DNA from: Clostridia bacterium
Lineage (GTDB): Bacteria; Bacillota; Clostridia; Christensenellales; DTU072
Length of the DNA stretch: 64,000 nt
Reading direction: 5' to 3'
NCBI GenBank assembly: GCA_017403145.1
Contig: JAFQOO010000005.1
Span: 107,141 to 171,140, forward strand
Shown here: piece by piece, positions 6,476 through 55,046 of the stretch
How the letters are laid out: each line of letters begins with the position of its first letter
How positions within the stretch are numbered: the first letter of the stretch is position 1
Program-made: the position numbers and the translations under genes
The notes under the pieces: generated by a model
What the model was told of the DNA's origin: nothing
What the model saw: the letters and a program-made list of their open reading frames with translations, nothing else
Database searches by the model: none

Positions 6476-7446
6476 TGTACGAAAGTATCACGAAAAAATT
6501 ATTTTCTGCCGAAACGGTTGCCGTGTTTATGCACGTCAACCCGGACGGTGATTGTGTAGGGAGCAGTCTTGCTCTCTATCATTATTTAAGGAACCTCGGC
6601 AAGGAAGTTTACGTTTTTACCGAGGTTAAAGAAGATATTAGGGAAAAATTATCCTTTTTGCCCTCAATAGAGGCTATAAACTCCAAGTCGCTAAAAAGAT
6701 ACGACTTGGGAATAGCTGTAGACTGCGGTAGCGCATCAAGAATGGGAAAAAACTGTTCGCTTATATTCTTTAACAAATGCGACGACCACGCTTGTTTTGA
6801 CCACCACGAAACCAGCGAACCATTTGTTGACGACCTTGTTTACGAAAACGTATCTTCTACTTGCGAAATTTTATATAAATTTATGGTGGAAAATGATGCT
6901 AGCGCAATTGACTATAACGTTGCGCTTTGTCTTTATACCGGTATGGTAACGGATAGCGGAGCATTCACTTTTAGTAATACTAGTGAAAAAACACTTGAAA
7001 TTGCTTCAAAATTGCTTAAATACGGCATAAATGGGCACCAAGTTATATATAAGGTTATCAAGGAAGAAACGCCTGAAATATTTGCACTAAAAGCTCGCAC
7101 GCTTGCAGGCGCACAATTTTATATGGATGGTCAAGTTGGTATCATTACCTTCCTAAAAGATGATTTTGAGAAGACGGGCACCTCGCCTAAGGATACCGAA
7201 GGTATCATAAATAATATAGTTAATATAAAGGGTGTTAAGCTAGCTATTTCCGTTGCCGAAATGGAAGACCAGCCTGCCTTTAAGATTGGCATACGTTCAA
7301 AAGATGGTGTTGATGCCGGTAAATTTGCTTCGTTATTCGGCGGTGGCGGACACTTTAACGCGAGCGGTTGTAGGATTTATGCAAATCTAACCGAAACTAT
7401 GGAAAAGCTATTAAGAGCTTCAAAACAAATACTCGAAAATGCTTAA
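6475..7446 (+). CDS. nrnA: DHH/DHHA1 phosphoesterase (NrnA-type oligoribonuclease / pAp phosphatase)
   Basis: Contains DHH-family motifs DGDCVGSS, DHH (FDHHETS) and the DHHA1 motif GGGGH. Confidence 0.8.
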   Translation: MYESITKKLFSAETVAVFMHVNPDGDCVGSSLALYHYLRNLGKEVYVFTEVKEDIREKLSFLPSIEAINSKSLKRYDLGIAVDCGSASRMGKNCSLIFFNKCDDHACFDHHETSEPFVDDLVYENVSSTCEILYKFMVENDASAIDYNVALCLYTGMVTDSGAFTFSNTSEKTLEIASKLLKYGINGHQVIYKVIKEETPEIFALKARTLAGAQFYMDGQVGIITFLKDDFEKTGTSPKDTEGIINNIVNIKGVKLAISVAEMEDQPAFKIGIRSKDGVDAGKFASLFGGGGHFNASGCRIYANLTETMEKLLRASKQILENA

Positions 7447-30782: not shown

Positions 30783-31069
30783 GGCGCAAAATTCGTAATC
30801 TTCTAAAATGAATTGTGGGGCAAAACTTGAAAAAATAGTATTAAAATTTCTCAGCAAAAATGCGGGCAATCGTTCATATAAATTTATAAGCAAATTAATA
30901 AAATGGATTTAAGTTCCAGCAAAATAAAAATCAAAAAAATCATCAATTTCTCTAAAAGATTATAGCTTGAATTTTTATAAAATCAACGACTGATAATACG
31001 AATAATTTATTAAATTCAAATGTCTGAGAAAAATTTTACGAATAGATTTGAAATTTTTTTTAAATTTTT

Positions 31070-31115: not shown

Positions 31116-31137
31116 CTACCCCTCTCGTTTTGCTATC

Positions 31138-31165
31138 TATTCGCAAAATCGGTGTTTTGCGAATA
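31138..31165. other. Perfect 28-bp palindrome with 11-6-11 architecture; candidate Xer/dif-type recombination core site
   Basis: TATTCGCAAAA (31138-31148), TCGGTG (31149-31154), TTTTGCGAATA (31155-31165). The arms are exact reverse complements. Confidence 0.5.
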
Positions 31166-31276
31166 AATGCACACGTGTAAAGGTGATAAAAATCCTTGCT
31201 CCCTACCCAATTTAATCAAAATTTATCACCACCTTTTCTTATTTTTATAAGAACGTACGTTGAAGTAGGAACACTT

Positions 31277-31402
31277 TTACCCTACCAAACGAAAGCAAAG
31301 CCAAGACCGGCAATAGTTCCAGCTAATAGAACTAAAAAAAACAAGAGCTACTACAATAGCAATAGTATTCTTTTTCTTATTTGACACGTTTTTGTAATTC
31401 AT
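31277..31402 (-). CDS. Mini-ORF A, 41 codons (MNYKNVSNKKKNTIAIVVALVFFSSISWNYCRSWLCFRLVG); probably a frameshifted copy of a hydrophobic peptide gene
   Basis: SD AAGGAG lies 7 nt upstream of ATG 31402, and the stop is at 31277-31279. An A8 run at 31334-31341 shifts the frame relative to copy B. Confidence 0.35.
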   Translation of the reverse strand: MNYKNVSNKKKNTIAIVVALVFFSSISWNYCRSWLCFRLVG

Positions 31403-31429
31403 ATTTTTCTCCTTTTAAGGTTTTAATTG

Positions 31430-31458
31430 TTGACAAATAAAGTTATTAAATATATAAT
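31430..31458 (+). promoter_or_regulatory. Consensus sigma-A promoter of small RNA A
   Basis: TTGACA (31430-31435), exactly 17 nt, TATAAT (31453-31458). Confidence 0.75.
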
Positions 31459-31464
31459 CATTAA

Positions 31465-31560
31465 TAGTGAATTAACACTTATTTCGCTTCCTATACAGCG
31501 ATTAGTAAGCATAGTGCCTTACACCAAGCAATGGTCCAATAAACCATTGCTTTTATTTTT
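31465..31560 (+). ncRNA. Candidate small RNA A (about 96 nt, no ORF)
   Basis: The start is inferred about 7 nt after the -10 element. Internal short hairpins are CGCT/AGCG and GTAAG/CTTAC. The terminator AAGCAATGG (31526-31534) / CCATTGCTT (31544-31552) is followed by TTATTTTT. Confidence 0.6.
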
Positions 31561-31655
31561 ATATAAATCTTTAATTTTTCGTTTATCATTTTCTTATTTT
31601 TATAAGAACGTATGTTGAAGTAGGAACACTTTTACCCTACCAAACGAAAGCAAAG

Positions 31656-31760
31656 TCAAGACCCGGCAATAGTTCCAGCTAATAGAACTAAAGAAAGAAC
31701 AAGAGCCACTACCAATAGAGCAGTATTCTTTTTCTTATTTGACACGTTTTTGTAGTTCAT
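31656..31760 (-). CDS. Mini-ORF B, 34 codons (MNYKNVSNKKKNTALLVVALVLSLVLLAGTIAGS); basic N-terminus plus one TM-like segment
   Basis: SD AAGGAA lies upstream of ATG 31760, with TGA at 31656-31658. An extra G relative to copy A (GACCCGGC vs GACCGGC) cuts off the shared hydrophobic tail. Confidence 0.4.
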   Translation of the reverse strand: MNYKNVSNKKKNTALLVVALVLSLVLLAGTIAGS

Positions 31761-31786
31761 TTTTTTTCCTTTTAAGGTTTTGATTG

Positions 31787-31815
31787 TTGACAAATAAAGT
31801 TATTAAATATATAAT
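31787..31815 (+). promoter_or_regulatory. Consensus sigma-A promoter of small RNA B
   Basis: TTGACA (31787-31792), 17 nt, TATAAT (31810-31815). The spacer is identical to promoter A. Confidence 0.75.
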
Positions 31816-31821
31816 CATAAA

Positions 31822-31915
31822 TAGTGAGTTTACACTTAAAGCGCTTATTTAGCGGTGAGAAGTAATACCACACACTTCCATGCAATGGTTTAATAGCCAT
31901 TGCTTTTATTTTTAT
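31822..31915 (+). ncRNA. Candidate small RNA B (about 94 nt), a diverged paralogue of A
   Basis: It shares the 5' AATAGTGA..ACACTTA segment with A. Its hairpins are CGCT/AGCG and GAAGT/ACTTC. The terminator GCAATGG (31882-31888) / CCATTGC (31897-31903) is followed by TTTTATTTTT. Confidence 0.6.
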
Positions 31916-31975
31916 AAAGATTTTTAATCTTTCTCTTATCATTTTCTTATTTTTCCCCTTTTAAGGTTCTAATTG

Positions 31976-32005
31976 TTGACATATACATATTCAAATGATT
32001 ATAAT
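31976..32005 (+). promoter_or_regulatory. Consensus sigma-A promoter of small RNA D
   Basis: TTGACA (31976-31981), 18 nt, TATAAT (32000-32005). The upstream flank is homologous to units A and B, but the peptide ORF is missing. Confidence 0.7.
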
Positions 32006-32011
32006 AATTGA

Positions 32012-32089
32012 TGTGAGAGTCAGGTTCATCTGACCGTGATAATTAAATCCCACTCACAAGAGAGCATTTAATTGCTCTCTTTATTTTTT
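32012..32089 (+). ncRNA. Candidate small RNA D (about 78 nt)
   Basis: TGTGAG (32012-32017) pairs with CTCACA (32053-32058), enclosing the hairpin GTCAG/CTGAC. The terminator AGAGAGCA (32059-32066) / TGCTCTCT (32073-32080) is followed by TTATTTTTT. Confidence 0.55.
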
Positions 32090-32126
32090 ATTTCGATGTT
32101 TAGTAGAAATTTTCTTCATATCCCAC

Positions 32127-32267
32127 TTAAAGTCGGTTTGGTTGGTAATCGGTATCAGCTACAAGTTCGATATTCTTACCCATTACGTCTTTAACGAACA
32201 GTTTCTTCGTTACTCTATCATTTTCCTCATTTACAACCGCTTTAGTTAAAAATTTAATCTTACTCAT
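32127..32267 (-). CDS. Hypothetical 46-codon ORF (MSKIKFLTKAVVNEENDRVTKKLFVKDVMGKNIELVADTDYQPNRL); doubtful
   Basis: It is shorter than the smallest entry in the ORF track and was found by manual translation. There is no recognisable SD. Confidence 0.15.
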   Translation of the reverse strand: MSKIKFLTKAVVNEENDRVTKKLFVKDVMGKNIELVADTDYQPNRL

Positions 32268-32283
32268 AATTGCAATTTTTATC

Positions 32284-32312
32284 TTGACTTTTTGTGAATA
32301 ATTGAATATACT
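32284..32312 (+). promoter_or_regulatory. Sigma-A-type promoter of small RNA E
   Basis: TTGACT (32284-32289), 17 nt, TATACT (32307-32312). Confidence 0.65.
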
Positions 32313-32318
32313 AATAAT

Positions 32319-32385
32319 GACAAAAGTAAATATTAAATTTCTTTTCCCACAGGGCAGTAATAATAACCTGTGGGATTCTTTTTTA
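32319..32385 (+). ncRNA. Candidate small RNA E (about 67 nt)
   Basis: CCCACAGG (32346-32353) pairs with CCTGTGGG (32367-32374) and is followed by ATTCTTTTTT. It converges on the 3' end of the minus-strand ORF 32383-32565. Confidence 0.5.
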
Positions 32386-32565
32386 ATTTATTTTTCTTTT
32401 TGCAAAAGCTTTAATAGAATCTGATTGCTTCTTGCTTAAATGCCTTTTTGAAATTTCATTAACATTAGAATCTTGTAAATTAATAGGTTTACCATTTATG
32501 TTTTTATCATAAAAAGAATTATGTACACCGGATACAACTTCAAATTCCTTAAACTTCATCGGCAT
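32383..32565 (-). CDS. Hypothetical small basic protein, about 60 aa (MPMKFKEFEVVSGVHNSFYDKNINGKPINLQDSNVNEISKRHLSKKQSDSIKAFAKRKIN)
   Basis: The track ORF 32383-32640 was shortened because a TTGACT-17-TATACT plus-strand promoter occupies its first 25 codons. ATG 32565 has a weak AAAGG upstream. Confidence 0.3.
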   Translation of the reverse strand: MPMKFKEFEVVSGVHNSFYDKNINGKPINLQDSNVNEISKRHLSKKQSDSIKAFAKRKIN

Positions 32566-32616
32566 AATAAAACCTTTGCTTACTTGTTGAAATCTCTTTT
32601 TATCTTTAGTATATAC

Positions 32617-32645
32617 TTGACTTATATATGCTATTAGCATATACT
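32617..32645 (+). promoter_or_regulatory. Sigma-A-type promoter of small RNA F
   Basis: TTGACT (32617-32622), 17 nt, TATACT (32640-32645). These are the same hexamers as promoter E. Confidence 0.65.
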
Positions 32646-32651
32646 ATCAAT

Positions 32652-32717
32652 AAAGACAGTGGCCTGCCGTGAAAACGGATGTGAGCATCGGAAGTATTTT
32701 CGGCTGTCTTATTTTTT
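32652..32717 (+). ncRNA. Candidate small RNA F (about 66 nt, one closed three-way structure)
   Basis: AAGACAG (32653-32659) pairs with CTGTCTT (32704-32710) and is followed by ATTTTTT. Inside are CCGT-GAAA-ACGG (a GNRA tetraloop hairpin) and CGGAA/TTTCG. Confidence 0.5.
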
Positions 32718-32764
32718 ATGCCTTTTTATCAACTCTTTATCATAATCACTTCTTAAAGCAAATA

Positions 32765-32935
32765 AAAGATAGCCGAGGCTCTCCAGCCCTCTATGCGTTT
32801 GAAGTGAGGATTCTGGCAAGTATAGTGGTCTTGCCAACACGGGGCACAAGGGAGTGTCCCTTGAGGCATAACAGGGACCACCTCTTGGTCTTCTTAACTC
32901 CCCTTTTGTCGGTGTCGCTTGCGCGCGAGAGTATA
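32765..32935. ncRNA. GC-rich, multi-hairpin element of unknown class (candidate structured RNA; strand unresolved)
   Basis: This is a sharp GC-rich patch in AT-rich intergenic DNA. Perfect hairpins lie at 32814-32820/32830-32836 (7 bp), 32847-32853/32857-32863 (7 bp) and 32874-32880/32886-32892 (7 bp, two of them G-U on the plus strand). Possible closing helices are 32801-32810/32892-32901 and 32772-32776/32909-32913. Terminator-like hairpins flank it on both strands. Confidence 0.4.
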
Positions 32936-32971
32936 AAAAAAGACAGGCTCTTGTGTCCTGTCTTAATTTTT
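32935..32971. terminator. Bidirectional intrinsic terminator
   Basis: AAGACAGG (32940-32947) pairs with CCTGTCTT (32957-32964). An A7 run lies upstream, giving a U7 tail on the minus strand after the 91-aa ORF. AATTTTT lies downstream on the plus strand. Confidence 0.65.
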
Positions 32972-33245
32972 AATCCACTATTGGATATTCTATATAATCA
33001 ATAATTTCAATTAAAGGTTTATTATTTATTTTAAATTCTAAAAGTAAAGCATCTATTGTATTAAACGTTTTATTATAAATCTCGTTTATATAAATATCTA
33101 CACCTTTCCCATCTTTAGTTATAATTAAATAATCTTTATGATTATATTGAAAATCAATTGAATACGAGCTTTTAAAGCTATCATATAACATATTAATAAA
33201 ATCTATTGAGTCTTGAACATCAGTGTATTTTTTAATATCAATCAT
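32970..33245 (-). CDS. Hypothetical acidic 91-aa protein (immunity/antitoxin-like second gene of a decayed bicistron)
   Basis: A clean ORF with GGAG 12 nt upstream and a strong terminator directly after the stop. The start ATG is embedded in ATGA with one reading frame of the upstream decayed gene. No recognisable family. Confidence 0.5.
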   Translation of the reverse strand: MIDIKKYTDVQDSIDFINMLYDSFKSSYSIDFQYNHKDYLIITKDGKGVDIYINEIYNKTFNTIDALLLEFKINNKPLIEIIDYIEYPIVD

Positions 33246-33554
33246 TTTATCACAAATCTCCTTTTCTTTTTAGCTTTATCAAATTCACGTTGCTCTTTTT
33301 TGTTAATTTCCTTTCTGAAGAACGAATAGGACCATTATAATCATGAGTATGGTCACTATTATTATGATTATTATGAGGTCTATTATATTCTTTATTCAAG
33401 GAACCTTTATCACCGACTTTCTTTCGCTGAATCCAGTTTTACTATGATAAACATCTATATTAGTATTAGGCTCTCCATAAATAGGCATCCTCGAAACAAT
33501 TTTTTTCAAACCTTTTGCATTAATTAATAATAAATCGTGTTTATGCTTTGACAT
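33242..33554 (-). pseudogene. Frameshifted small basic protein gene upstream of the 91-aa ORF
   Basis: Strong SD AAGGAG lies 7 nt before ATG 33554. Frame 1 (MSKHKHDLLLINAKGLKKIVSRMPIYGEPNTNIDVYHSKTGFSERKSVIKVP) stops at 33396. The -1 frame stays open across that stop (..VGDKGSLNKEYNRPHNNHNNSDHTHDYNGPIRSSERKLTKK..) and continues to 33250. A third frame ends in the ATGA overlap at 33242-33245. Confidence 0.45.
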
Positions 33555-33612
33555 AATTATACTCCTTTTGTGTCATAAAATCAATATGGTAAATCATCGT
33601 TATTATCATCAA

Positions 33613-33706
33613 CCGGCAATAGTTCTAGCTAGAGAACTAAAGAAAAACAAGAGCTACTACAATAGCAATAGTATTTTTTCTTATTTGACACGTTTTTTAA
33701 TTCATA
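33613..33706 (-). pseudogene. Dead third copy of the hydrophobic-peptide mini-gene
   Basis: It is homologous to ORF A and B, but ATG AAT TAA gives a stop at codon 3 through a 1-nt deletion. There is a further 2-nt deletion, and the 3' end is truncated at 33613. Confidence 0.5.
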
Positions 33707-33734
33707 TTTTTCTCCTTTTTAAGGTTTTAATTGT

Positions 33735-33763
33735 TGACAAATAAAAATATTAGATATATAATC
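33735..33763 (+). promoter_or_regulatory. Consensus sigma-A promoter of small RNA C
   Basis: TTGACA (33735-33740), 17 nt, TATAAT (33758-33763). Confidence 0.75.
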
Positions 33764-33769
33764 ATTAAT

Positions 33770-33866
33770 AGTGAATTAACACTTATTTCGCTTCTCACAG
33801 CGATTAGTAAGCATTGTGCCTTACACCAAGCAATGGTCCAATAAACCATTGCTTTTATTTTTTATA
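33770..33866 (+). ncRNA. Candidate small RNA C (about 97 nt), a near-identical paralogue of A
   Basis: It differs from A only in a hairpin loop (TCTCAC vs TCCTATACA) and one other base. The terminator AAGCAATGG (33829-33837) / CCATTGCTT (33847-33855) is followed by TTATTTTTT. Confidence 0.6.
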
Positions 33867-33897: not shown

Positions 33898-33928
33898 TTA
33901 AGCAAAAATTCATTGTATTTTGCGAATA
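33898..33928. other. Degenerate copy of the 28-bp site, abutting the recombinase gene
   Basis: TTTAGCAAAAA (33898-33908), a 9-nt spacer TTCATTGTA, then TTTTGCGAATA (33918-33928). The right arm is identical to 31155-31165. Confidence 0.35.
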
Positions 33929-33941
33929 GTCGTGTTATTAT
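33913..33941 (+). promoter_or_regulatory. Putative extended -10 promoter of the recombinase gene (leaderless mRNA)
   Basis: TTGTAT (33913-33918), 17 nt, TGtTATTAT (hexamer at 33936-33941). ATG 33948 begins 7 nt after the hexamer, with no SD. The right arm of the site lies in the spacer. Confidence 0.4.
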
Positions 33942-33947
33942 TTTAGT

Positions 33948-35018
33948 ATGGCAAACGAAAGATATTACGACCAATTTAATAGAGAAAAATATGAGAAATT
34001 TAACTCCATCGTTGAAGAACTTCCCTATTTTTGCAATGAGTACTTTACCGGTATAGATTCCACTACTTCGGTGCTTACTAAACTTAACTATGCAACCGAT
34101 TTATCCATTTTCTTTGACTTTTTGGTGCATAAAGTACACGGTTTTGTCGGTAAGCAAATTGCTGATATTACTTTAAAAGATATTGACGAATATATATCAG
34201 CTACCGAAATTGAATATTTTTTAAGATATTTATCCTTCTATACTTTCAAAGGAAAGCCCTATCGTAATGCAGAAAAGGCTAAGGCAAGAAAGTTGAGTGC
34301 TGTTAGGTCCCTATTCAAATATTTTTATAATAAGGATAAACTTAGTCAAAACGTTACTGCAAAAGTTGCAACGCCCAAGCTTCACGAGAAAGCTATTGTT
34401 CGTTTGGACGATAACGAAGTGGAAAAAATGCTTGATACTGTAGAAAGTGAGCAAAAATTTGTTTCAAAATTCCAAAATAGTTATAATATGAACACGCGCG
34501 ACCGCGATATTGCTATAGTTACGTTATTTTTAGGTACGGGAATTCGTGTTAGCGAGTTGGTTGGTATAAATCTTGATGACCTTGATATAAAGAATAACGC
34601 ATTTAAAGTTACTAGGAAAGGCGGAAACGTATCTGTTCTATATTTCTCCGAAGAAGTAAAAGATGCGCTTGAATACTACCTAGAATGGCGTGAGCAAAGA
34701 CTCCTCAAGGCCAATCGATTGGATAAAGAAAACGCACTATTTATTTCTTTGCAAAACAAGCGCATAACCGTTAGAGCTGTTGAGAATTTGGTAAAAAAGT
34801 ATACGGGCGTTGTCAATCCTTTAAAATCGGTATCTCCGCATAAACTACGTTCCACCTATGGTACCGCTCTTTACCGCCAAACCAAGGATATTTATATGGT
34901 TGCAGAAGTGCTTGGTCATCGAGACGTTAATACCACAAAGAAACACTATGCTGCAATAGACGAAGATATAAAGCGCGAAGCATCTACCAAGGTTAAGTTG
35001 CGTAAAAACGACGATTAA
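33948..35018 (+). CDS. Tyrosine site-specific recombinase, Xer family (XerS-like single recombinase)
   Basis: 356-aa ORF. Catalytic residues are in GTGIRVSEL (Arg), HKLRST (His-x-x-Arg), LGHRDVNTT (His) and KKHY (Tyr). The N-terminal core-binding domain has LPYFCNEYF...FFDFL, and a VTRKGGN motif is present. Length and motifs match my recollection of XerS. Confidence 0.85.
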   Translation: MANERYYDQFNREKYEKFNSIVEELPYFCNEYFTGIDSTTSVLTKLNYATDLSIFFDFLVHKVHGFVGKQIADITLKDIDEYISATEIEYFLRYLSFYTFKGKPYRNAEKAKARKLSAVRSLFKYFYNKDKLSQNVTAKVATPKLHEKAIVRLDDNEVEKMLDTVESEQKFVSKFQNSYNMNTRDRDIAIVTLFLGTGIRVSELVGINLDDLDIKNNAFKVTRKGGNVSVLYFSEEVKDALEYYLEWREQRLLKANRLDKENALFISLQNKRITVRAVENLVKKYTGVVNPLKSVSPHKLRSTYGTALYRQTKDIYMVAEVLGHRDVNTTKKHYAAIDEDIKREASTKVKLRKNDD

Positions 35019-39024: not shown

Positions 39025-39053
39025 TTGACTTAAACAAAATATTTGTTTATAAT
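39025..39053 (+). promoter_or_regulatory. Sigma-A promoter of tRNA-Trp
   Basis: TTGACT (39025-39030), 17 nt, TATAAT (39048-39053). The tRNA 5' end is 16 nt downstream. Confidence 0.7.
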
Positions 39054-46778: not shown

Positions 46779-49700
46779 TTATTTCTTTTTACCCATCATT
46801 TGCTTTCTGATGGTACGTTTTGCAACACCGCGCGTAATCGCCTTGTAGTTGGCTATTTTTACTAGGTAACCTATTAGGAATATTAGGCCTATTCCGCCTA
46901 CTGCAGAGCCTGCTACGACGTAAGGAGTAATGTTGGGCTTATCTTCATTGGGAGATTCGTATACTATGGTATATACTCCGTTGAAGTAATTGAATGAATA
47001 GTTTTCATCGTATCCTTCGTTAAACTCGATTACGTTGACGCCTACTTTACCGCTGGTAAGCTTGGGTGTGGGTAGAACAGCTATATCTTCTACACCTTCG
47101 TTTTCAACAAAGCCTTCGTATATTAGGTTAATCTTAGGTGCAATACCAGCATAAGTTGTGATATTTGCAGGGGTTGAAACCTTTAGTACCTTTTTAGCGA
47201 TTGTAAACTCAACCGAGTTAGAACCGGAAATGGTGTATGAAGAATTGGAGGGTGTTACGATTAGTCTATAGGTACCTGCATCACGAATGGTATCAACGTT
47301 GAAGATTTTAACAGGTTCACAGTTGTCTCCGACGATTACTCCATTGAAGTAAACCTTAACGTCGTCGTTGCGGGTATAACCATTGTAAACAAGGTTTTTG
47401 TATCCGTCGAACGATACGCTAATAGTCTTGGTCTTAATTTGGATGCTTTGAGTGCCTTCTACGTCGAGATAGTCGTTGGTTTCTTCAAATGAAGCGGATA
47501 CGGTGTGTCTACCTGCCGGGGGGAATGCGGGCAATGTACCATCTTCATTTTCAAATGAATAGCGAACGTCTATAGCTTTTTCTAGACCGGGAGCCTTGAC
47601 GGAAGCGTTGATTGCTGTAAACGAGCCATAGGTTTGAGTAAAGGTTCCGGTAAAGTACAAGGTGGGAGTTACCTTATTTATAACCATTTCGGTGCTAGCG
47701 AGCAAGCGATATTTAGAGATATCTTGTTCGTCGCTTTCGTGGTAGAAATAGCAATTTATAGTATAAACACCGGCAGATTTAGGTGCGCTAGTTTGTAGTA
47801 GATAGTCTTTACCATCGTAACGTCTACCTTCATATTTTAGAATGTATTTAACGTTTTCTTGGATGGAATCCTCTTCGATAATGGGTTCAACTGTTTTAGC
47901 GGTGTTATCAAAATCGAAGGAGTAGGATTTACTTCCAAACTTAACTATAGCAAGTTCCTTGATTTCGGCGGGAATTATAACGATTCTACTATCTTCGTTG
48001 GCGGGGAGCTTATAGTTGTCGCTATGAGTTCCTTCGAGAGCGTTGATAGTCATAACAACCGTAGTTTTACCGGGGTCGGCTGAGGTTAGTACAGCCTTAT
48101 AATTGACCTTTAGAGCACCCGTAGTATTGGCATCGCGTTCAATCAAGCCGTTTATTACGTAGTTTTCTTGGGTGATTTCCGCATAAGTAGTACCATCAAC
48201 GGTCTTAACGAAGGTTGAACCTGCGCTAATAGTAACCTCTCTAGGAGTAATGTTAACGTCTTGTTCTGCAGCGATTTCGCCCATTTGAACAACCACTAAA
48301 TCACCCCTTTCGTTTTTCTTAACGATATTATAATTGGTGTAGCTTTCTTTATCGTTTATTATTACGATGGTGTGTTTGCTTGCACTCATTATAGTTTCGA
48401 CGTTGCCTTCGCCGGATAGATAGTTTTCTTTGTAATTGATGTATACCTTTATGCCGACGTTTGCGCTATCGGGAGTTTCGTTGTTAACGAATCCTTTATA
48501 TATAATGTTAGGATATGCAATATCAAATTCGTCAACTACGTTTTGTGAATAATGTTCACCGTATACCAAATCGTAATCGCCTTGACCGAACGTTAAGGTA
48601 AGGTTTACTTTATCGATAATAGCTTGGTCGGTATATTTTAGAATACCATCGGTCTTTTGAACGCCATTTTCGCCTATTTCACCGGGCAATACGTAGTTGT
48701 TTGCATATTCGTCGACCTTGAACTTATAAATTATATTTATAATCTTATTTTGACCTGCATTTGCGTTATCGTACTCAGCATAAACGGAAAGTTGGTGATT
48801 TAGGAACCTTTCGGGTATGTTTGTCTTGCTGGGGTCGATGGAAGCGGTTTTGGTACCGTCATAGGGCTTTTGAATGGTTACACTAGGACGTGTAGCATCG
48901 TTACCAACGTTAAATACGGTGTTCAAATTGAATTTATTAACGAATAGCCTATAATTTACGTTGTTACCATTTTCATCGATAGCACGATAGTTTTTATCAA
49001 CTATAAATTCACCGTTATCTAGTTTCTTTAGGAATTCTATGGTAAGAGCATAACCGCTTTCTTTATAGGGAATACCGCCTATATCGTAGGAAGAAGTGAT
49101 GGCTTCACGAGTAATGCGAACGTATTGCTTAAAGTTTTCTTCGGTAATATTTGCATCACATTTTTCAAAGTCGATTAGTAGACCATTGTAGTAATCGGGG
49201 TCATAAGATGTTATATCGTTTCCTTGAGTGTCTTTATAGGTGAAGGTCTCGCCAAAGGTAATATAGTAAGTGTTGTTATCAAATGCGTAAATATGGTTAT
49301 TGTTTAGGGTTACCTTAACGCTTCTACCGACAATAACAATTTTACCCTTATTGGTGCCTTCGTTCATCTTACATACAACGTTAGAGTTGTTATCGGTGCA
49401 CGAAGTCGATAAGTCGTAAGAGCCTGCATCGGTACCCTCTTTTATTGTGTTAGAATTGATGGGCTCCATTGCAACGATAACCGTATATTCGCCCAATACA
49501 GGTGAATATAATCTAATCTCTTGAACTAGATTTATAATGGGAGTCATATAGTCGAATTCGAAGCGTTTTGCATCGAAATAAACTTCCAACTCATCAATTC
49601 TAAACGTGTCGTTAGCACCATCATAGCCAAAGTAGTTAATATTATAGTTGCTGTTTGCTTCACTAGAATTTGCTATTTCATAGGAAACGTTGTTGTTTTC

Positions 49701-52700
49701 ATCTACTACTTTATTAACAAGATTGAAACCGGTATAACGATAATCACCTACGGTTTCACCGCTTTGGCGAAGCAATTTAACGTAGATTTCGTCCCCTTCC
49801 AATATACCCGTGGTGTTTTGAGTGTTAAGAGCTAGTATCAATGAACCATCTTCGTCGCCATAAGTCTTTTTAAACTTGACGGAGCTGGTTTTAAAGGTAA
49901 TGTCTTTGGGGTTGATAACTATTGTTGCCGTGGTGGGATATCTTTCTTGATTATCCTCGTAGATTAGGTAGTTTTTGTTGATGGGGTTGTTTGCGTCAAG
50001 AGTTACGGTGGCGGTATAGGTACCAACGTCTTTTATACTCTCTATTTGATATTCATCACTAATAATTGAGCCTTTATATAGTTTAACAATAAAAGACACT
50101 TTTTCTGCGGAAAGGTTAAGGTCGAGCATAACGCCACTCTTGTCATAGTAGCCTGCGTCTTCAATACGACCATAGTTATCACCGATTTCGGCACCGACTA
50201 CCATAGTAGTACCATCGTAGTAGTATGTATTAGCATTACTATTCTTATCGAATTTAGCGAATATGTATCTAGGCATTATAGTGAATGAATCACTAAACGC
50301 GGTGCTGTAGTTATCGTTAGCGTTAATAATATAGTAGTTTTTAGCAACTTCTACGTTCGTGGGAAGTTCGGCCGATACTTTATAGGTACCTGCATTGATA
50401 CAATCGTTTATAGAAGCACCGCTTTCATCGTAATATTTTACTACGAGATTTATTTCGTCGCTTCCTAAAGTGGTGTTGGGAGCAACAAACGTATAGGAGA
50501 TAGTTCTCTTATTAGCTTCGTAGTTATAAATACCACCATTTTGTAGGTTAAACCTGATTTCTAGAGGAGCTTTGGCAATAACGAAGTTTTGTACTTGCTT
50601 GGTATCGGTAGTGTAGTTTGCGTTACCTACTCTAGCAGAAATTTGATAATTACCTACGTTTACGGGATTACCTATAATATCAGAGTCGGTGTCCATATTT
50701 CTATAAGACAAGCTAATTACAGGGTCTTCTGCAATTATAGGAGTGCTTGCTGATATCGAGTAAGATGCGGTTTTAGCTTCTGCCGAATAAACGTGGCTTA
50801 CCGTAGATAAATCGTATTCTAATGCGATTAGATATTTTGCAATTTCGAACTTAACGGGATTTATACTATTAGAACTGATAGCATAGTTGGAGTTACCGCT
50901 TAGAGTTGCAGTTGCAGTATATACACCTGCGTTTCTAGGTTCTTCTTCCCTCTTTGTAGCATCGAATATAAAGGTAATATTTAGCTCAAGCGTATCACCT
51001 TCACAAATATACTCGGGATTCTTGAAAGCAACCTTTATGCCGTCGGGGTTGGTTAGAGCGTCATACTTATGGTTCGTACCATCATAGGTAAGGTTGCTGT
51101 AACCGCTAAATCCGATTTCAAGAGTCTTTTGGGTTATTTCAAAGTTGAATTGTCTATCTTTAATATTATCAGAAAGAACGTAGTTTGCAGGAGCGCTGGT
51201 AAAGTTTACGGTAGCGGTATATCTACCATAATCTTTGGGAGTCTTGCCACCATAATCAATAGTCATTCCAATTTCACCATCTTGAGCTTTATAACCAATA
51301 AACTCGGCGGTTACAGCTTGAGTTTTTCCGTTATAGGGCAACGTGGTTGGAGAAGTAAATCTTACGTTCAAAAGTGCCTTTGTAATAGTGAAAGTGGTTT
51401 CAATAGAGCCTTTGAAGTTCTTTTGACCGGATATTGTTACGTTTGCAGTACCTGCATTGGTATTATTGCTAATATAAACCGTATAGTTTTCGGCTTGCAT
51501 AATGGTTTCGCCGAATCTTACTACGATATTAAGTAACTTTTCGTTAGGATTATTGGGATTTATAGTACTTTGATTTATTTCGTAACCAATATATTCAATA
51601 TCTGCAATCTTATCAATCGAAACAACGCTATTCGCCTTTTCCATATCGTATTGAGTGATGGTAAGAACGTGAGAGTCATAGCCCGTTTTAATAGTATAGT
51701 TGGGGTTGCGTAGTGAGTATCTAACGGTATATGAGCCGGCATCAATTGCAGTCGTGGGGTTGTAATTGGAGTCGTAAACTTGGTCTATAACGGTTACGAT
51801 ATCATTACCACAAAGTGTTTCACCAACGTATCCTACTACGGTATGTGAGGAACCATCATACTCATAACTATCGGTGTCGTAGGTTAGCATAATAGCACGA
51901 GGAACAATGGTAACCGATTGTTGTGCGTTACTAATCGAGTAATTGGTTAAAACGATAGAATCGTCGGGATTTTCGTAGCTTTCTACGAGCGATGCGGTAG
52001 CGGTATAGGTACCAACTATAATCATATCACCGCTATAAGTAATATCGATGTTGTCGTCTATCAAGCCTTTACCTTGCGATGCGGGAGCAAGTTTTGCGTG
52101 TAAACCATTAGCATCTTTATTGTAGGTGGTGCCTTGATATACCAAATCGTATACGTCGTTGGAAGAAGAGTCAGTTCCGGTATAGAACACTACGCTAATA
52201 TCAATAGGAGTTATTCTAATATCGCTAAAAGTAGCAGTTGCGCTATTTAGCGAGTAGTTTTCGTTAGTAATAGTCGCAGTAGCAACGTAGGTACCGGCAT
52301 TCTTTAGAGGAACGTTATTCGTTGCAGTTTCGTTATGATAGTAAGAAATAACTATACCAACTTCATCACCTGCTGCAATAACTGTATTTGCATTGGTTAC
52401 CACACAAGTTACTTCTTGGTTTTCATTAGAGAATCCTTTATTGAAAGCGGTCCAAGTGAGCCCTATTTCCTTTTTATAAACGTACATATGCTCTTGGATA
52501 TATCCGTCTCTTAGTTTATAGTTCGGGTTGGAAGCGATTGTTGCTCTAACGACGTAATAGTCGTCATCCCCTTTTGAACCATCTTTAACGGTAGTTTTGG
52601 TTACCTCTGTTCCGCTGATAGCATCGTTGATAGTATTGTATACTGCATAGTTAAATACAACACTATCGCCACCAATCAAGTTAGTAGCCGTAACGCTTGG

Positions 52701-55046
52701 TTCAAGTTTGTTTCCATTGTAGGTTTGATGTAGATGGGACCATTCGCAATCTAGCGTTCTTTCGGTAATTTTACAATTATAAAGGGTAAGAGAAGTGCCG
52801 GAGTTAGCAGATAGCACGTAGTTACCGGTAACGTTCAAGCCCGATATTTTAACTACCTTATTGGAACCAACTGAGCCATCGAGTAATGCGCCGGTGCTAT
52901 CGTAGAAGTTACCTGCACCAATAGTGAATGTAGGCGTATCTAGAGGAGCATTATTTGTGCCTGCAAGATAGAATCCGTAGTGTAATCTATAGGTAAGGTC
53001 GTTACCATCAACGTTAGAGGTACCATCGTATTCTCTTGTGTATGATGCCGAAAGTTGTACCAAGTCAACTTCTGCGCGAGAAATAGTATATTTGTAATTT
53101 TGAGCTTTGGTTGCGTCGAATAGGTAAATCTTGGAAGGAGCATTGGCATTGTTAACGCCCAAGCTTTCTCCATCTTGAACTTTGGTAGATTGACCTGTTT
53201 TGGAGTCGTAACGATATAGAACCATAGAATAGGTTCCAACGTTAGCACCGGTAGTAATTTGTGCGCTACCCATATCACCTATAATATTGTTGGTGGAATC
53301 CGTATCGTGTTCGGCGACCCAGTACAAATTGCTCAACAAATTGTTGCTGGTTGCACTCGGAGCACCTTGGAAAAAGATACCGGTTGTGTCGTAAATTTTA
53401 TTTCCGTCGCATACAACGTACAAAGATTTTTCGGTTGTTGCAAGTATGACGCGGAATTCATGACAATTTATTGGGATTTGATAGCTTTCGTCAAAGGTTA
53501 CGTGAGTGGTTTGTGCTACGTTATAGTAATTTTTGGTAGAAAATGCACCATTGTTAACCATATTATAGGTTAATGCAGAAATCAGATAATTTTGGTCGTC
53601 CGACTTAGCTTCAACAACAAGGGCGCCGTTATTTGCAGTATAATCGCTAAATTTGATGTTTTTAACAATACCACTACCAAAAGTTACGGAGCCATCCGCA
53701 GATTCAGCTTCAGCATAATATGCTTTAGGAGTATATTCTCTGAGTGTGTTTACCGTTAAAGAACCTTCAGTGCCTTTATAAACACTGCTTATAGAACCAC
53801 TGCCAATAGAATTTTTAATAGTTAAAGATGAAGCACCTGTCTTTGAAGGGCCGGAAGTTGAACTATAGTAATTGTAAATGCCAACGCCACTATTTTTAGA
53901 TGCATCAGCGGTGCTTCTCCATAATCCGTTTATAGTGGTTCCATTACCTACACCAACGATAGTACCTGCATTCATAGCGGAGCCGGCAAGTTCTTTAACG
54001 TAACATCTACCTTGGTATTCGTAAAGTAAGCCATGTATAGTTAAAGTACCACCATAATTGTAACCGAGTAGACCTCCAGCTAAATTTATGGTATGTAAAT
54101 ATTGTGCATTACTAGCATCTACGTAGTTATTTCTACCGGTTGCGGCAGCTCCTACGTATCCGTCGCCTTTGAAAACCAAACCATAAACTTCGGTTGAACC
54201 ACTTTGTGTTTCCCCTATCATTCCACCTGCTACCGCTCTATCGGCACGAGTGTTGGGGGAGGAGAGCATAACTGTTGCACCCTTTTTACTAGCACCAGCA
54301 CTAACGTTTTGACCACGAGCCCAAACGGAGCCATTGTTGTTGAACGTGATGTTTCTTAATTTAGCGCCTTGAGACCTACCAATCATTGCACCAACGACAG
54401 CACCTTGACCACCGGAGCAATTTTCATGGTCTGCACTATCGTCAATACCTACACCGGCAATCGTGCTATTAAGGTTGAAAGTTAGGTTTTCTATTTTTGC
54501 ACCACTATAAGCTAGTCCACATAAACCGCCTACGTAAATGGTAGTACTACCTTCACCGGAATATGTGTTAGAGGATGACTTGCTATTACCTGCAAGCATA
54601 GTCCAATATGCGTTCCATTCTATAGTCAAATTTTTGACAACCGCACTTGCACCCAATCTTCCAAAAACAGCACCAACGTAGTAGTCGTTGTTAGCACCTA
54701 TCCTATAGGAATCCGAACCGCTAACGGTGATTTTATGACCATTACCGTCAAAGGTTCCGCTAAACGTAGCAATATTTACCGTATCATTGTTAATAGAGAT
54801 GGTAATATCGCTATCTAGCTTGTATTCTCCCGTTACGGTGCCGGAACTACCGTTTAGTTGAATTACGCTACGGTAGTTATCCGAGGTAATAGTTGTTGCT
54901 GCGCTAGCCACAATGGTGTCTCCGTTATCGGAAACTTGTGGAAGAGTCGCGGTTAGGGCGAAACCTAAGGCAAACAAACATATTATCACCATAATTGAGA
55001 TAATCGCGCGTGAGTTAAACTTAATGTTAGTAAATATTTTTTGCAT
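46779..55046 (-). CDS. Giant (2755 aa) cell-surface repeat protein: N-terminal GLUG-type beta-helix-like region + many MBG-type repeats + C-terminal TM anchor
   Basis: SD AAGGAG lies 7 nt before ATG 55046. There is an N-terminal signal/anchor (IISIMVIICLFALGFALTA). The first roughly 450 aa have FDGNGHKITV and repeated GG(L/M)xG motifs (GGLCGL, AGGMIGE, AGGLLGY). At least 12 modules then follow with the Y(D/N)G...(A/V)G(T/S/V)Y...NY signature (e.g. YEYDGSSHTV...DAGSYTVRYSLRNPNYTI). The protein ends with a TM segment (VVAGSAVGGIGLIFLIGYLV) plus a basic tail, and there is no LPXTG motif. Confidence 0.9.
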   Translation of the reverse strand: MQKIFTNIKFNSRAIISIMVIICLFALGFALTATLPQVSDNGDTIVASAATTITSDNYRSVIQLNGSSGTVTGEYKLDSDITISINNDTVNIATFSGTFDGNGHKITVSGSDSYRIGANNDYYVGAVFGRLGASAVVKNLTIEWNAYWTMLAGNSKSSSNTYSGEGSTTIYVGGLCGLAYSGAKIENLTFNLNSTIAGVGIDDSADHENCSGGQGAVVGAMIGRSQGAKLRNITFNNNGSVWARGQNVSAGASKKGATVMLSSPNTRADRAVAGGMIGETQSGSTEVYGLVFKGDGYVGAAATGRNNYVDASNAQYLHTINLAGGLLGYNYGGTLTIHGLLYEYQGRCYVKELAGSAMNAGTIVGVGNGTTINGLWRSTADASKNSGVGIYNYYSSTSGPSKTGASSLTIKNSIGSGSISSVYKGTEGSLTVNTLREYTPKAYYAEAESADGSVTFGSGIVKNIKFSDYTANNGALVVEAKSDDQNYLISALTYNMVNNGAFSTKNYYNVAQTTHVTFDESYQIPINCHEFRVILATTEKSLYVVCDGNKIYDTTGIFFQGAPSATSNNLLSNLYWVAEHDTDSTNNIIGDMGSAQITTGANVGTYSMVLYRYDSKTGQSTKVQDGESLGVNNANAPSKIYLFDATKAQNYKYTISRAEVDLVQLSASYTREYDGTSNVDGNDLTYRLHYGFYLAGTNNAPLDTPTFTIGAGNFYDSTGALLDGSVGSNKVVKISGLNVTGNYVLSANSGTSLTLYNCKITERTLDCEWSHLHQTYNGNKLEPSVTATNLIGGDSVVFNYAVYNTINDAISGTEVTKTTVKDGSKGDDDYYVVRATIASNPNYKLRDGYIQEHMYVYKKEIGLTWTAFNKGFSNENQEVTCVVTNANTVIAAGDEVGIVISYYHNETATNNVPLKNAGTYVATATITNENYSLNSATATFSDIRITPIDISVVFYTGTDSSSNDVYDLVYQGTTYNKDANGLHAKLAPASQGKGLIDDNIDITYSGDMIIVGTYTATASLVESYENPDDSIVLTNYSISNAQQSVTIVPRAIMLTYDTDSYEYDGSSHTVVGYVGETLCGNDIVTVIDQVYDSNYNPTTAIDAGSYTVRYSLRNPNYTIKTGYDSHVLTITQYDMEKANSVVSIDKIADIEYIGYEINQSTINPNNPNEKLLNIVVRFGETIMQAENYTVYISNNTNAGTANVTISGQKNFKGSIETTFTITKALLNVRFTSPTTLPYNGKTQAVTAEFIGYKAQDGEIGMTIDYGGKTPKDYGRYTATVNFTSAPANYVLSDNIKDRQFNFEITQKTLEIGFSGYSNLTYDGTNHKYDALTNPDGIKVAFKNPEYICEGDTLELNITFIFDATKREEEPRNAGVYTATATLSGNSNYAISSNSINPVKFEIAKYLIALEYDLSTVSHVYSAEAKTASYSISASTPIIAEDPVISLSYRNMDTDSDIIGNPVNVGNYQISARVGNANYTTDTKQVQNFVIAKAPLEIRFNLQNGGIYNYEANKRTISYTFVAPNTTLGSDEINLVVKYYDESGASINDCINAGTYKVSAELPTNVEVAKNYYIINANDNYSTAFSDSFTIMPRYIFAKFDKNSNANTYYYDGTTMVVGAEIGDNYGRIEDAGYYDKSGVMLDLNLSAEKVSFIVKLYKGSIISDEYQIESIKDVGTYTATVTLDANNPINKNYLIYEDNQERYPTTATIVINPKDITFKTSSVKFKKTYGDEDGSLILALNTQNTTGILEGDEIYVKLLRQSGETVGDYRYTGFNLVNKVVDENNNVSYEIANSSEANSNYNINYFGYDGANDTFRIDELEVYFDAKRFEFDYMTPIINLVQEIRLYSPVLGEYTVIVAMEPINSNTIKEGTDAGSYDLSTSCTDNNSNVVCKMNEGTNKGKIVIVGRSVKVTLNNNHIYAFDNNTYYITFGETFTYKDTQGNDITSYDPDYYNGLLIDFEKCDANITEENFKQYVRITREAITSSYDIGGIPYKESGYALTIEFLKKLDNGEFIVDKNYRAIDENGNNVNYRLFVNKFNLNTVFNVGNDATRPSVTIQKPYDGTKTASIDPSKTNIPERFLNHQLSVYAEYDNANAGQNKIINIIYKFKVDEYANNYVLPGEIGENGVQKTDGILKYTDQAIIDKVNLTLTFGQGDYDLVYGEHYSQNVVDEFDIAYPNIIYKGFVNNETPDSANVGIKVYINYKENYLSGEGNVETIMSASKHTIVIINDKESYTNYNIVKKNERGDLVVVQMGEIAAEQDVNITPREVTISAGSTFVKTVDGTTYAEITQENYVINGLIERDANTTGALKVNYKAVLTSADPGKTTVVMTINALEGTHSDNYKLPANEDSRIVIIPAEIKELAIVKFGSKSYSFDFDNTAKTVEPIIEEDSIQENVKYILKYEGRRYDGKDYLLQTSAPKSAGVYTINCYFYHESDEQDISKYRLLASTEMVINKVTPTLYFTGTFTQTYGSFTAINASVKAPGLEKAIDVRYSFENEDGTLPAFPPAGRHTVSASFEETNDYLDVEGTQSIQIKTKTISVSFDGYKNLVYNGYTRNDDVKVYFNGVIVGDNCEPVKIFNVDTIRDAGTYRLIVTPSNSSYTISGSNSVEFTIAKKVLKVSTPANITTYAGIAPKINLIYEGFVENEGVEDIAVLPTPKLTSGKVGVNVIEFNEGYDENYSFNYFNGVYTIVYESPNEDKPNITPYVVAGSAVGGIGLIFLIGYLVKIANYKAITRGVAKRTIRKQMMGKKK

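Follow-up and report, generated by a model that had tools for sequence, protein, structure and literature searches.

A dense, uniformly oriented cluster of predicted small-RNA genes in mobile-element debris beside a dif-like site of a Clostridia bacterium

Introduction

The Spr RNAs of Staphylococcus aureus pathogenicity islands are short RNAs encoded on horizontally acquired islands. Here we describe six predicted small transcription units, U1 to U6, on a 2.7-kb island between a dif-like site and the gene of a XerS-like tyrosine recombinase (xerS) in a Clostridia bacterium (GTDB lineage Bacteria; Bacillota; Clostridia; Christensenellales; DTU072), a member of a group of widespread uncultured gut Clostridia. 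The stretch analysed, referred to throughout as the window, comprises 64,000 nucleotides (NCBI GenBank assembly GCA_017403145.1, contig JAFQOO010000005.1, positions 107,141 to 171,140 of the forward strand). Like the Spr RNAs, the units each have a strong promoter and a terminator of their own and are clustered in acquired, strain-variable DNA, and some of them adjoin small open reading frames (ORFs) for membrane peptides. Unlike the Spr island genes, they are packed much more densely, with six of them in 2.4 kb and ten or more RNA types across the strains. They are also oriented uniformly, occupy one fixed place between dif and xerS, and have gene stubs as neighbouring ORFs; the two sets of RNAs are related neither in sequence nor through Rfam. 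The locus therefore belongs to a known kind, that of small RNA (sRNA) genes on horizontally acquired islands, and is unusual in its density, its single orientation, the diversity of its RNA types and its fixed place beside dif.

Constitutive antisense and immunity RNAs of phages and plasmids, which include plasmid countertranscripts, lambda OOP, c4 of P1 and P7, and CI of P4, offer a further comparison. The units resemble these RNAs in their length of 60–100 nt, their stem-loops, strong promoters and intrinsic terminators, and their orientation opposite to the genes of an element, but no complementary target was found for them and they were not seen in an intact element. Divergent sRNA antitoxins are known from type I toxin–antitoxin (TA) loci such as zorO-orzO (PMC3919570; reviewed in PMC4147584 and PMC6563280). 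These loci share with the island a small hydrophobic ORF beside a divergent sRNA gene, predicted in the case of the island, with a much stronger promoter, as well as duplicated copies; in the island, however, the ORF is a fragment of a larger gene without detectable purifying selection, no complementarity of 15–20 nt was found, and a hydrophobic partner is missing from three of the six units. The position of the island recalls the integrative mobile elements exploiting Xer recombination (IMEX) and the dif modules of Acinetobacter plasmids (PMC5357621; PMC6449649), in that foreign DNA gathers at a Xer site and, in other strains, an element with a Rep gene is joined precisely within dif. It differs from them in that the island is not bounded by two dif-like sites and that its cargo consists mostly of small RNA units rather than protein genes. 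As in XerS/difSL, the site is linked to a single recombinase (PMC1914069; PMC2965235).

Six promoter–terminator units on one strand

A consensus scan recovered all six of the near-consensus sigma-A promoters that the original prediction had placed on the plus strand within 2.4 kb, the last of them at 33734 rather than 33735. The units are named by promoter position (U1, 31430; U2, 31787; U3, 31976; U4, 32284; U5, 32617; U6, 33734). The promoters of U1, U2 and U6 (TTGACA-17-TATAAT) match the consensus at 12 of 12 positions, as does that of U3 with an 18-bp spacer (TTGACA-18-TATAAT), and U4 and U5 each have a TTGACT-17-TATACT promoter that matches at 10 of 12. In the 64-kb window there are five perfect TTGACA-N16-18-TATAAT promoters where shuffles predict 0.04, and the island accounts for four of them. 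For the TTGACT/TATACT form the expectation is 0.02, and the two copies in the window are both in the island.

Each promoter is followed after 65–100 nt by a stem and a U-run, and between promoter and terminator no unit has an ATG-initiated ORF with a Shine–Dalgarno (SD) sequence; the terminator scan, the RNA folds and the ORF list thus bear out what had been read from the sequence at first. U1 (31430–31562) would yield an alpha-type RNA of ~98 nt, ending at a terminator at 31526–31552 with its U-run, and U2 (31787–31913), whose promoter is identical to that of U1, a beta-type RNA of ~92 nt (terminator 31882–31903). The predicted RNA of U3 (31976–32092) is ~81 nt long (terminator 32058–32081), and that of U6 (33734–33865), again of the alpha type, ~97 nt (terminator 33828–33854), with xerS ~80 nt downstream. 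These four terminators came from the scan, and the remaining two were seen in RNA folds: U4 (32284–32384; ~66 nt) has CCCACAGG...CCUGUGGG followed by a U-run and ends at 32384, and U5 (32617–32716; ~65 nt) has AAGACAG...CUGUCUU followed by a U-run and ends at 32716. The end of U4 falls on the stop codon of ORF 32383–32565, a coincidence first pointed out for an "RNA E", which appears to be U4 in that order of listing. All the RNAs but that of U5 (z −1.2) are predicted to fold better than their shuffled versions (z −3.6 to −5.2). When both strands of the whole window were searched with a promoter-plus-terminator finder, 12 units were returned, of which five are in the island (U5 was missed); a tRNA gene at 39025 among the non-island units serves as a positive control. 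These features support U1 to U6 as predicted, dedicated small non-coding transcription units that are unusually dense and lie in an island of foreign origin.

The units are partly copies of one another. One module of ~356 bp is present three times (31234–31590, 31589–31945 and 33610–33866), in the order minus-strand ORF, 27-bp spacer, promoter, RNA, terminator and short spacer, and U3 is homologous to the corresponding part of the module in its upstream region, up to and including the −35 hexamer, its RNA body being unrelated. A 5' segment shared among units, as the original prediction had it, is accordingly present. The count of six holds for the units themselves, but only about four are independent, because U1, U2 and U6 are copies of the module and U3 shares its upstream part.

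The module RNAs fall into two subtypes, alpha (U1 and U6) and beta (U2), which have three hairpins in common. In eight distinct copies from several strains, the stems of these shared hairpins are invariant, and every difference is in a loop or in the segment that folds into its own hairpin in each subtype; this pattern of variation is consistent with a structured RNA, short of proof by covariation. Between U1 and U6 the gene stubs are ~15% different and carry at least three indels, whereas promoter and RNA are ~5% different, with changes only in the promoter spacer and the hairpin loops.

Recurrence in other strains and species

The arrangement of the island in the window is real: locus L053 has the same gene arrangement, four further places are similar, and the product of the frameshifted ORF (P0008) is found on ten contigs. 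In other strains of the species the pieces recur in a different order and are joined by further unit types. The units run beta, C', alpha in L005; beta, U3, G in L049; alpha, beta, U3, U5 in L050; and alpha, C', D', U5, beta, U3, G in L052. In another species (L013, XerS 84% identical) there is a separate island of 1.3 kb with four plus-strand units. Counting the window and these five loci together, there are 27 units, which represent at least ten RNA types and without exception lie on the plus strand. All 27 are complete, whereas each type of neighbouring ORF is broken in some locus, and a terminator always lies directly ahead of the xerS promoter. The sister-species loci L008, L009, L011 and L012 have only 242–298 bp from dif to xerS and no units, and the dif–xerS intervals of more distant relatives have essentially none.

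Two of the RNA bodies are found across species. U5, which is also present in L050 and L052, has a homologue in L013 (7085–7172, 94% identical) with a promoter spacer that differs from the one in the window. The U4 homologue (L013 7814–7925, 85% identical) stands behind TTGACT-18-TATAAT, compared with TTGACT-17-TATACT in the window, and its terminator stem shows one compensatory pair, C-G to U-A. The occurrence of homologous RNA bodies behind different promoters, all of them near-consensus, may be a sign of function, and the better preservation of promoter and RNA than of the stub within the module a sign of constraint, both comparisons resting on small samples. Locus L013 also has a ~120-nt unit (7203–7339) with a sub-threshold Rfam match to istR (30.4 bits against 45, E = 0.026), which is probably due to chance. 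The istR RNA is the antitoxin RNA of tisB.

Mobile-element origin of the surrounding DNA

Other strains of the species (L001–L004, L049, L052, L056 and L057) have an integrated element at dif, at least 11 kb long, that carries a PF02407 Rep gene. Its junction, the only one from which the element is known, falls exactly where the left arm of dif meets the centre, one arm being replaced by element sequence: L001 reads ...gtacaacaCAAAATCGGTGTTTTGCGAATAAAT, and the empty site in L005 reads ...tatttattcgCAAAATCGGTGTTTTGCGAATAAAT, that is, ...tatttattcgCAAAATCGGTG.... A 238-aa member of the membrane-anchor family described below lies ~10 kb inside the element, and the integrase-bearing element L063 has a syntenic gene set. 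The cargo of the Rep element (L001 6265–12123; L056 9900–21017; also L049 and L052) comprises the circovirus-type PF02407 Rep, Zn-ribbon and helix-turn-helix genes, and a series of proteins for which Pfam gave no match. More than 1,800 relatives of the Rep family are in the database, many of them on contigs of 2–8 kb.

The ORFs of the island are all on the minus strand in the ORF list, as had been predicted, and this is the orientation of the element's main gene set once integrated. The hydrophobic ORFs 31277–31402 and 31656–31760 and the remnant at 33612–33706 are 5' stubs of an MNYK membrane-anchor gene, truncated by nonsense or frameshift changes. In stub no. 1 (31249–31402, minus strand) a frameshift in a T8 run is followed by old codons that run on past the TAG; stub no. 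2 (31604–31760, minus strand) has an extra C and is cut to 34 codons; and stub no. 3 (33612–33706, minus strand) is heavily degraded, with a stop at codon 3. The frameshift of stub no. 1 is in a homopolymer (31320–31345), where the plus strand has A8 and other copies have 9–10 mixed bases, and since the frameshifted product occurs on ten contigs it is no local sequencing error.

The peptide begins with MNYKNVSNKKKNT and continues into a membrane span, which gives it a basic N-terminus and a transmembrane stretch of ~25 residues; intact versions of 39–41 aa are present in metagenomes. In a profile search of 1.84 billion representative proteins, its 40 residues proved to be the N-terminal anchor of proteins of 204–258 aa (P0135, E = 5e-21; P0138–P0142). 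An intact 204-aa gene in L062 has the same ribosome-binding region as the island stubs and reads ...FAFDWWGKSVPTSTYVL... where the island copies read ...FAFVW*GKSVPTSTYVL, the stop of the peptide being a TGG-to-TAG change in the frame of the longer gene. An apparently conserved 3' untranslated region of the stub was rejected on the same grounds, as this DNA is the old reading frame of the longer gene. The differences among the stubs are non-synonymous substitutions, indels that keep the frame, and frameshifts, and the ratio of non-synonymous to synonymous substitution rates (dN/dS) among intact versions is ~1 or higher, over few sites. Stub peptides matched no toxin family in Pfam or NCBIfam, where only weak unrelated matches were seen, and nothing in PHROGs at E up to 0.01; a peptide scan of GTDB genomes was empty, as was a scan of IMG/VR with the anchor-protein family. 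The members of this family (204–258 aa) are acidic, carry an MNYKxVxxKKKNT motif, a membrane span and a DWW...PTSTYN motif, have no Pfam domain, and occur as tandem paralogues and mobile-element genes (L062 29–1021, L056 19976–20692, L063 6001–6777). The apparently chimeric contig L064 was used only for a same-strand promoter ahead of one member of the family.

The remaining pieces are likewise fragments of elements. A Rep remnant (33562–33612, minus strand) covers the 3' end of a PF02407 Rep gene together with the bases that directly follow. The two-gene module at 32970–33554 (minus strand) consists of a 106-aa gene, of which ORF 33242–33554 is a frameshifted copy, and a 91-aa gene. It is intact in L052 (5157–5749), and its relatives lie directly after a Rep_1 gene in the Zot-bearing L059 (5001–5592) and beside a phage integrase in L060 (758–1344), with products of 106–108 and 88–91 aa; the two may form a toxin–immunity pair or a type II TA system. 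Among the small ORFs, the only match in Pfam, NCBIfam and PHROGs beyond weak unrelated ones is that of the 91-aa protein to phrog_3711 (unknown function); in the same databases there was no family match for ORF 32383–32565 or for ORF 32127–32267, the latter without a recognisable SD sequence, and neither of these two ORFs has any support. A GC-rich non-coding block with a minus-strand terminator (32771–32964) shares 88% identity with non-coding DNA of the Rep element, and the terminator itself (32923–32963) recurs at 90% identity in L013. The block (190 nt, ~55% GC against ~30% locally) folds better than shuffles on the plus strand (z −2.3) and not on the minus strand (z −0.8), has no Rfam match, and could be an origin, a single-strand-origin structure or an RNA.

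The dif-like site and its recombinase

At the left of the island lies a 34-bp palindrome (31135–31168), ATCTATTCGCAAAA-TCGGTG-TTTTGCGAATAAAT. Of 41 related loci (XerS 52–91% identical), 31 have its core, TATTCGCAAAA-N6-TTTTGCGAATA, upstream of xerS, with conserved arms, a variable centre and a distance to xerS of 91 to 7,706 bp; in the window the dif–xerS interval is 2,780 bp. The xerS gene (33948–35018, plus strand) encodes a XerS-like protein of 356 aa, its best NCBIfam model being XerS at 192 bits, below the cut-off of 267. The closest relatives of the recombinase (84–91% identity; L008–L013) identify the bacterium as an uncultured gut representative of the genus Candidatus Stercoripulliclostridium, followed by Christensenellaceae-like metagenome-assembled genomes (52–59% identity). 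Gene direction changes from plus to minus between 37.6 and 38 kb, and the cumulative GC skew has its maximum near 30 kb, so the window spans the replication terminus. A dif-like site that is genetically linked to its own recombinase is the hallmark of XerS/difSL (PMC1914069; PMC2731167; PMC2965235), and the same linkage is found here, with a dif-like inverted repeat beside a recombinase gene at the terminus. Judged by its sequence and setting, the palindrome behaves as the dif of a XerS-like single-recombinase system. Even on a conservative reading of the locus, the dif and XerS-like system of Christensenellales-like Clostridia is hereby defined and a Rep-bearing element is seen to use dif.

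Exact arms were found only at 31138, 31155 and 33918, with no second dif-like site inside the island, and the arm copy at 33918 is kept in species without an island. Two extra single-arm copies, at 31034–31047 and 33917–33930, are conserved too. The spacer of the putative xerS promoter (TTGTAT-17-TATTAT) holds one single-arm copy, that is, a XerS half-site, and the U4 promoter spacer holds a near copy of the half-site. The xerS start codon has no visible SD sequence, so that autoregulation and a leaderless mRNA are possible.

Possible functions of the RNAs

We tentatively favour, at somewhat less than even probability, the reading that the units are small-RNA genes brought by mobile elements and kept intact beside dif, and that they are probably constitutive repressors. 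The six units would then be genes for RNAs of 65–100 nt, each with a near-consensus sigma-A promoter and an intrinsic terminator, in an island assembled from decayed mobile-element pieces, at least one kind of which integrates at dif. The RNAs would have arrived with such elements, in which they probably acted as constitutive repressor or antisense RNAs (immunity or copy control) opposite to the element genes, and would have been retained intact in the chromosome while the surrounding protein genes decayed. For U1, U2 and U6 local action seems most likely, as a perfect promoter stands 27 bp from the stub start codon, with the predicted sRNA gene on the opposite strand. The −10 hexamer of this promoter overlaps the only conserved −10-like element of the stub (TATATT), so that bound RNA polymerase would block leftward expression with or without pairing. 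A regulatory function of the RNAs is plausible. Of the regulatory or addiction cargo that was originally suggested, the dense and dedicated RNA units in a foreign island are supported, but the addiction part is not, given the gene stubs, the dN/dS of ~1 and the lack of complementarity. If the RNAs are made and act on dif-integrating elements, the locus would be a compact case, legible from sequence, of a host storing the regulatory RNAs of its invaders at the invaders' own site of entry.

Several observations weigh against repressor genes retained from elements. Transcription of the units is itself a prediction from sequence, and because the alpha/beta stems never vary, structure is not proven for this family. 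The units match no Rfam family (E below 1) apart from chance snoRNA and miRNA matches, and the RNA cores have no match in IMG/VR. In JGI metagenomes the promoter/SD block gave only one unrelated match. The portions of the Rep elements that were sampled contain no unit, and neither do L059–L063; no antisense target was found in any of these or in the 64-kb window. Recent horizontal transfer, and not selection, may explain why U4 and U5 are so similar between species, since other debris is equally similar. Finally, the left end of the island may be 57 bp to the right of dif (L008) and there is no inner dif-like site.

Pairing was examined more widely. The RNAs are not significantly complementary to the stubs or other ORFs of the island, to xerS, to the elements or to the remainder of the window, and the units overlie no protein-gene remnant. 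Duplex energies of cognate RNA–stub pairs and their longest complementary runs fall within shuffled and genomic nulls, the best complementary core by eye being ~7 nt. Exceedances in trans were rejected as trivial matches of A/U runs or as the physical overlap of U4 with ORF 32383–32565, and a pairing of U5 with ORF60 was rejected as a long mismatched alignment that failed the energy test. In L013, a variant RNA has an 11–12-nt match to the gene stub, which is borderline after multiple testing.

A second possibility is that the units are inert: orphaned promoter–leader–terminator pieces left after deletion of the genes downstream, such as attenuated leaders or short constitutive transcripts like those that precede the late operons of phages. 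They would be intact only because they are young, and would have no present function. The rest of the island is decaying mobile-element DNA, the 90% identity of its minus-strand terminator in L013 indicates that similarity across species need not mean selection, and neither a target nor a known family was found. We nevertheless regard inertness as unlikely, though deserving to be taken seriously. In the duplicated module, the adjoining stub has changed markedly more than RNA and promoter; all 27 units are complete although every type of neighbouring ORF is broken somewhere; and RNA bodies recur behind different near-consensus promoters. Moreover, the units point against the element genes and therefore cannot be leaders of those genes. 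The peptides suggest a different account, that of a type I TA system in which membrane peptides of 33–41 aa would be the toxins, U1, U2 and U6 their divergent RNA antitoxins, and the other units antitoxins that have lost their toxins. Such an account draws on the basic N-terminus and ~25-residue transmembrane stretch of the peptide, the predicted divergent sRNA gene 27 bp away, the multiple copies in which the peptide gene is often broken and the RNA always intact, the precedent of zorO-orzO (PMC3919570), and the other small membrane-protein genes at this position in L014 and L010. As the lead reading it was dropped because the peptide is the N-terminus of longer proteins and its dN/dS is ~1, and we consider it improbable: the supposed stop and 3' untranslated region are coding sequence of a 204–258-aa protein with a TGG-to-TAG change, dN/dS may even exceed 1, no toxin family is matched in Pfam or NCBIfam, and sRNA–mRNA complementarity is not significant, with a best core of ~7 nt and energies within the null. 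There is also no convincing toxin promoter, and a transcript from the stub's candidate start would not overlap the sRNA. As a sigma-A promoter for the stubs, only GTGTTA/TGTAAA-17/18-TATATT (8 of 12 positions) is conserved, and it was rejected as unconvincing. A seemingly convincing type I toxin can thus be the stub of a larger gene.

It is more improbable still that the units serve the host by insulation, with strong terminated units shielding dif or the xerS promoter against transcription from outside or setting local supercoiling, and with the RNA sequence irrelevant. The uniform orientation from dif to xerS and the terminator that always stands just before the xerS promoter would suit this role, as would the XerS half-site in the putative xerS promoter spacer and its near copy in that of U4. 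However, most related species have no such units, and the RNA bodies are conserved as sequence, with changes confined to loops, which would be needless in an insulator. Retention of repressor genes from elements could also be extended further, to an accretion array of small-RNA genes left in the dif–xerS stretch of this genus by successive Xer-integrating elements and providing antisense immunity against related elements, an idea that we consider a long shot. The retained RNAs would in that case block re-infection by related elements or their expression, and the stretch would be an RNA-based chromosomal record of past invaders beside their site of integration.

Neighbouring genes

The small membrane-protein genes that lie just upstream of xerS in L014 (7636–7826) and L010 (168–380), which represent further species of the genus, are on the minus strand and differ from the stubs, encoding 63 and 70 aa with a basic C-terminus. 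In L014, overlapping divergent promoter-like sites, TTGATT-17-TATAGT and TTGACT-17-TAAAAT, flank the start of the membrane gene. The genes flanking the island in the window are miaA-like, Met-gamma-lyase-family, XerS-like recombinase, LexA and PadR genes, the miaA-like assignment being based on a PF01715 match of the identical copy in L053. Further along the window, the minus strand carries an ORF of 2,755 aa at 46779–55046.

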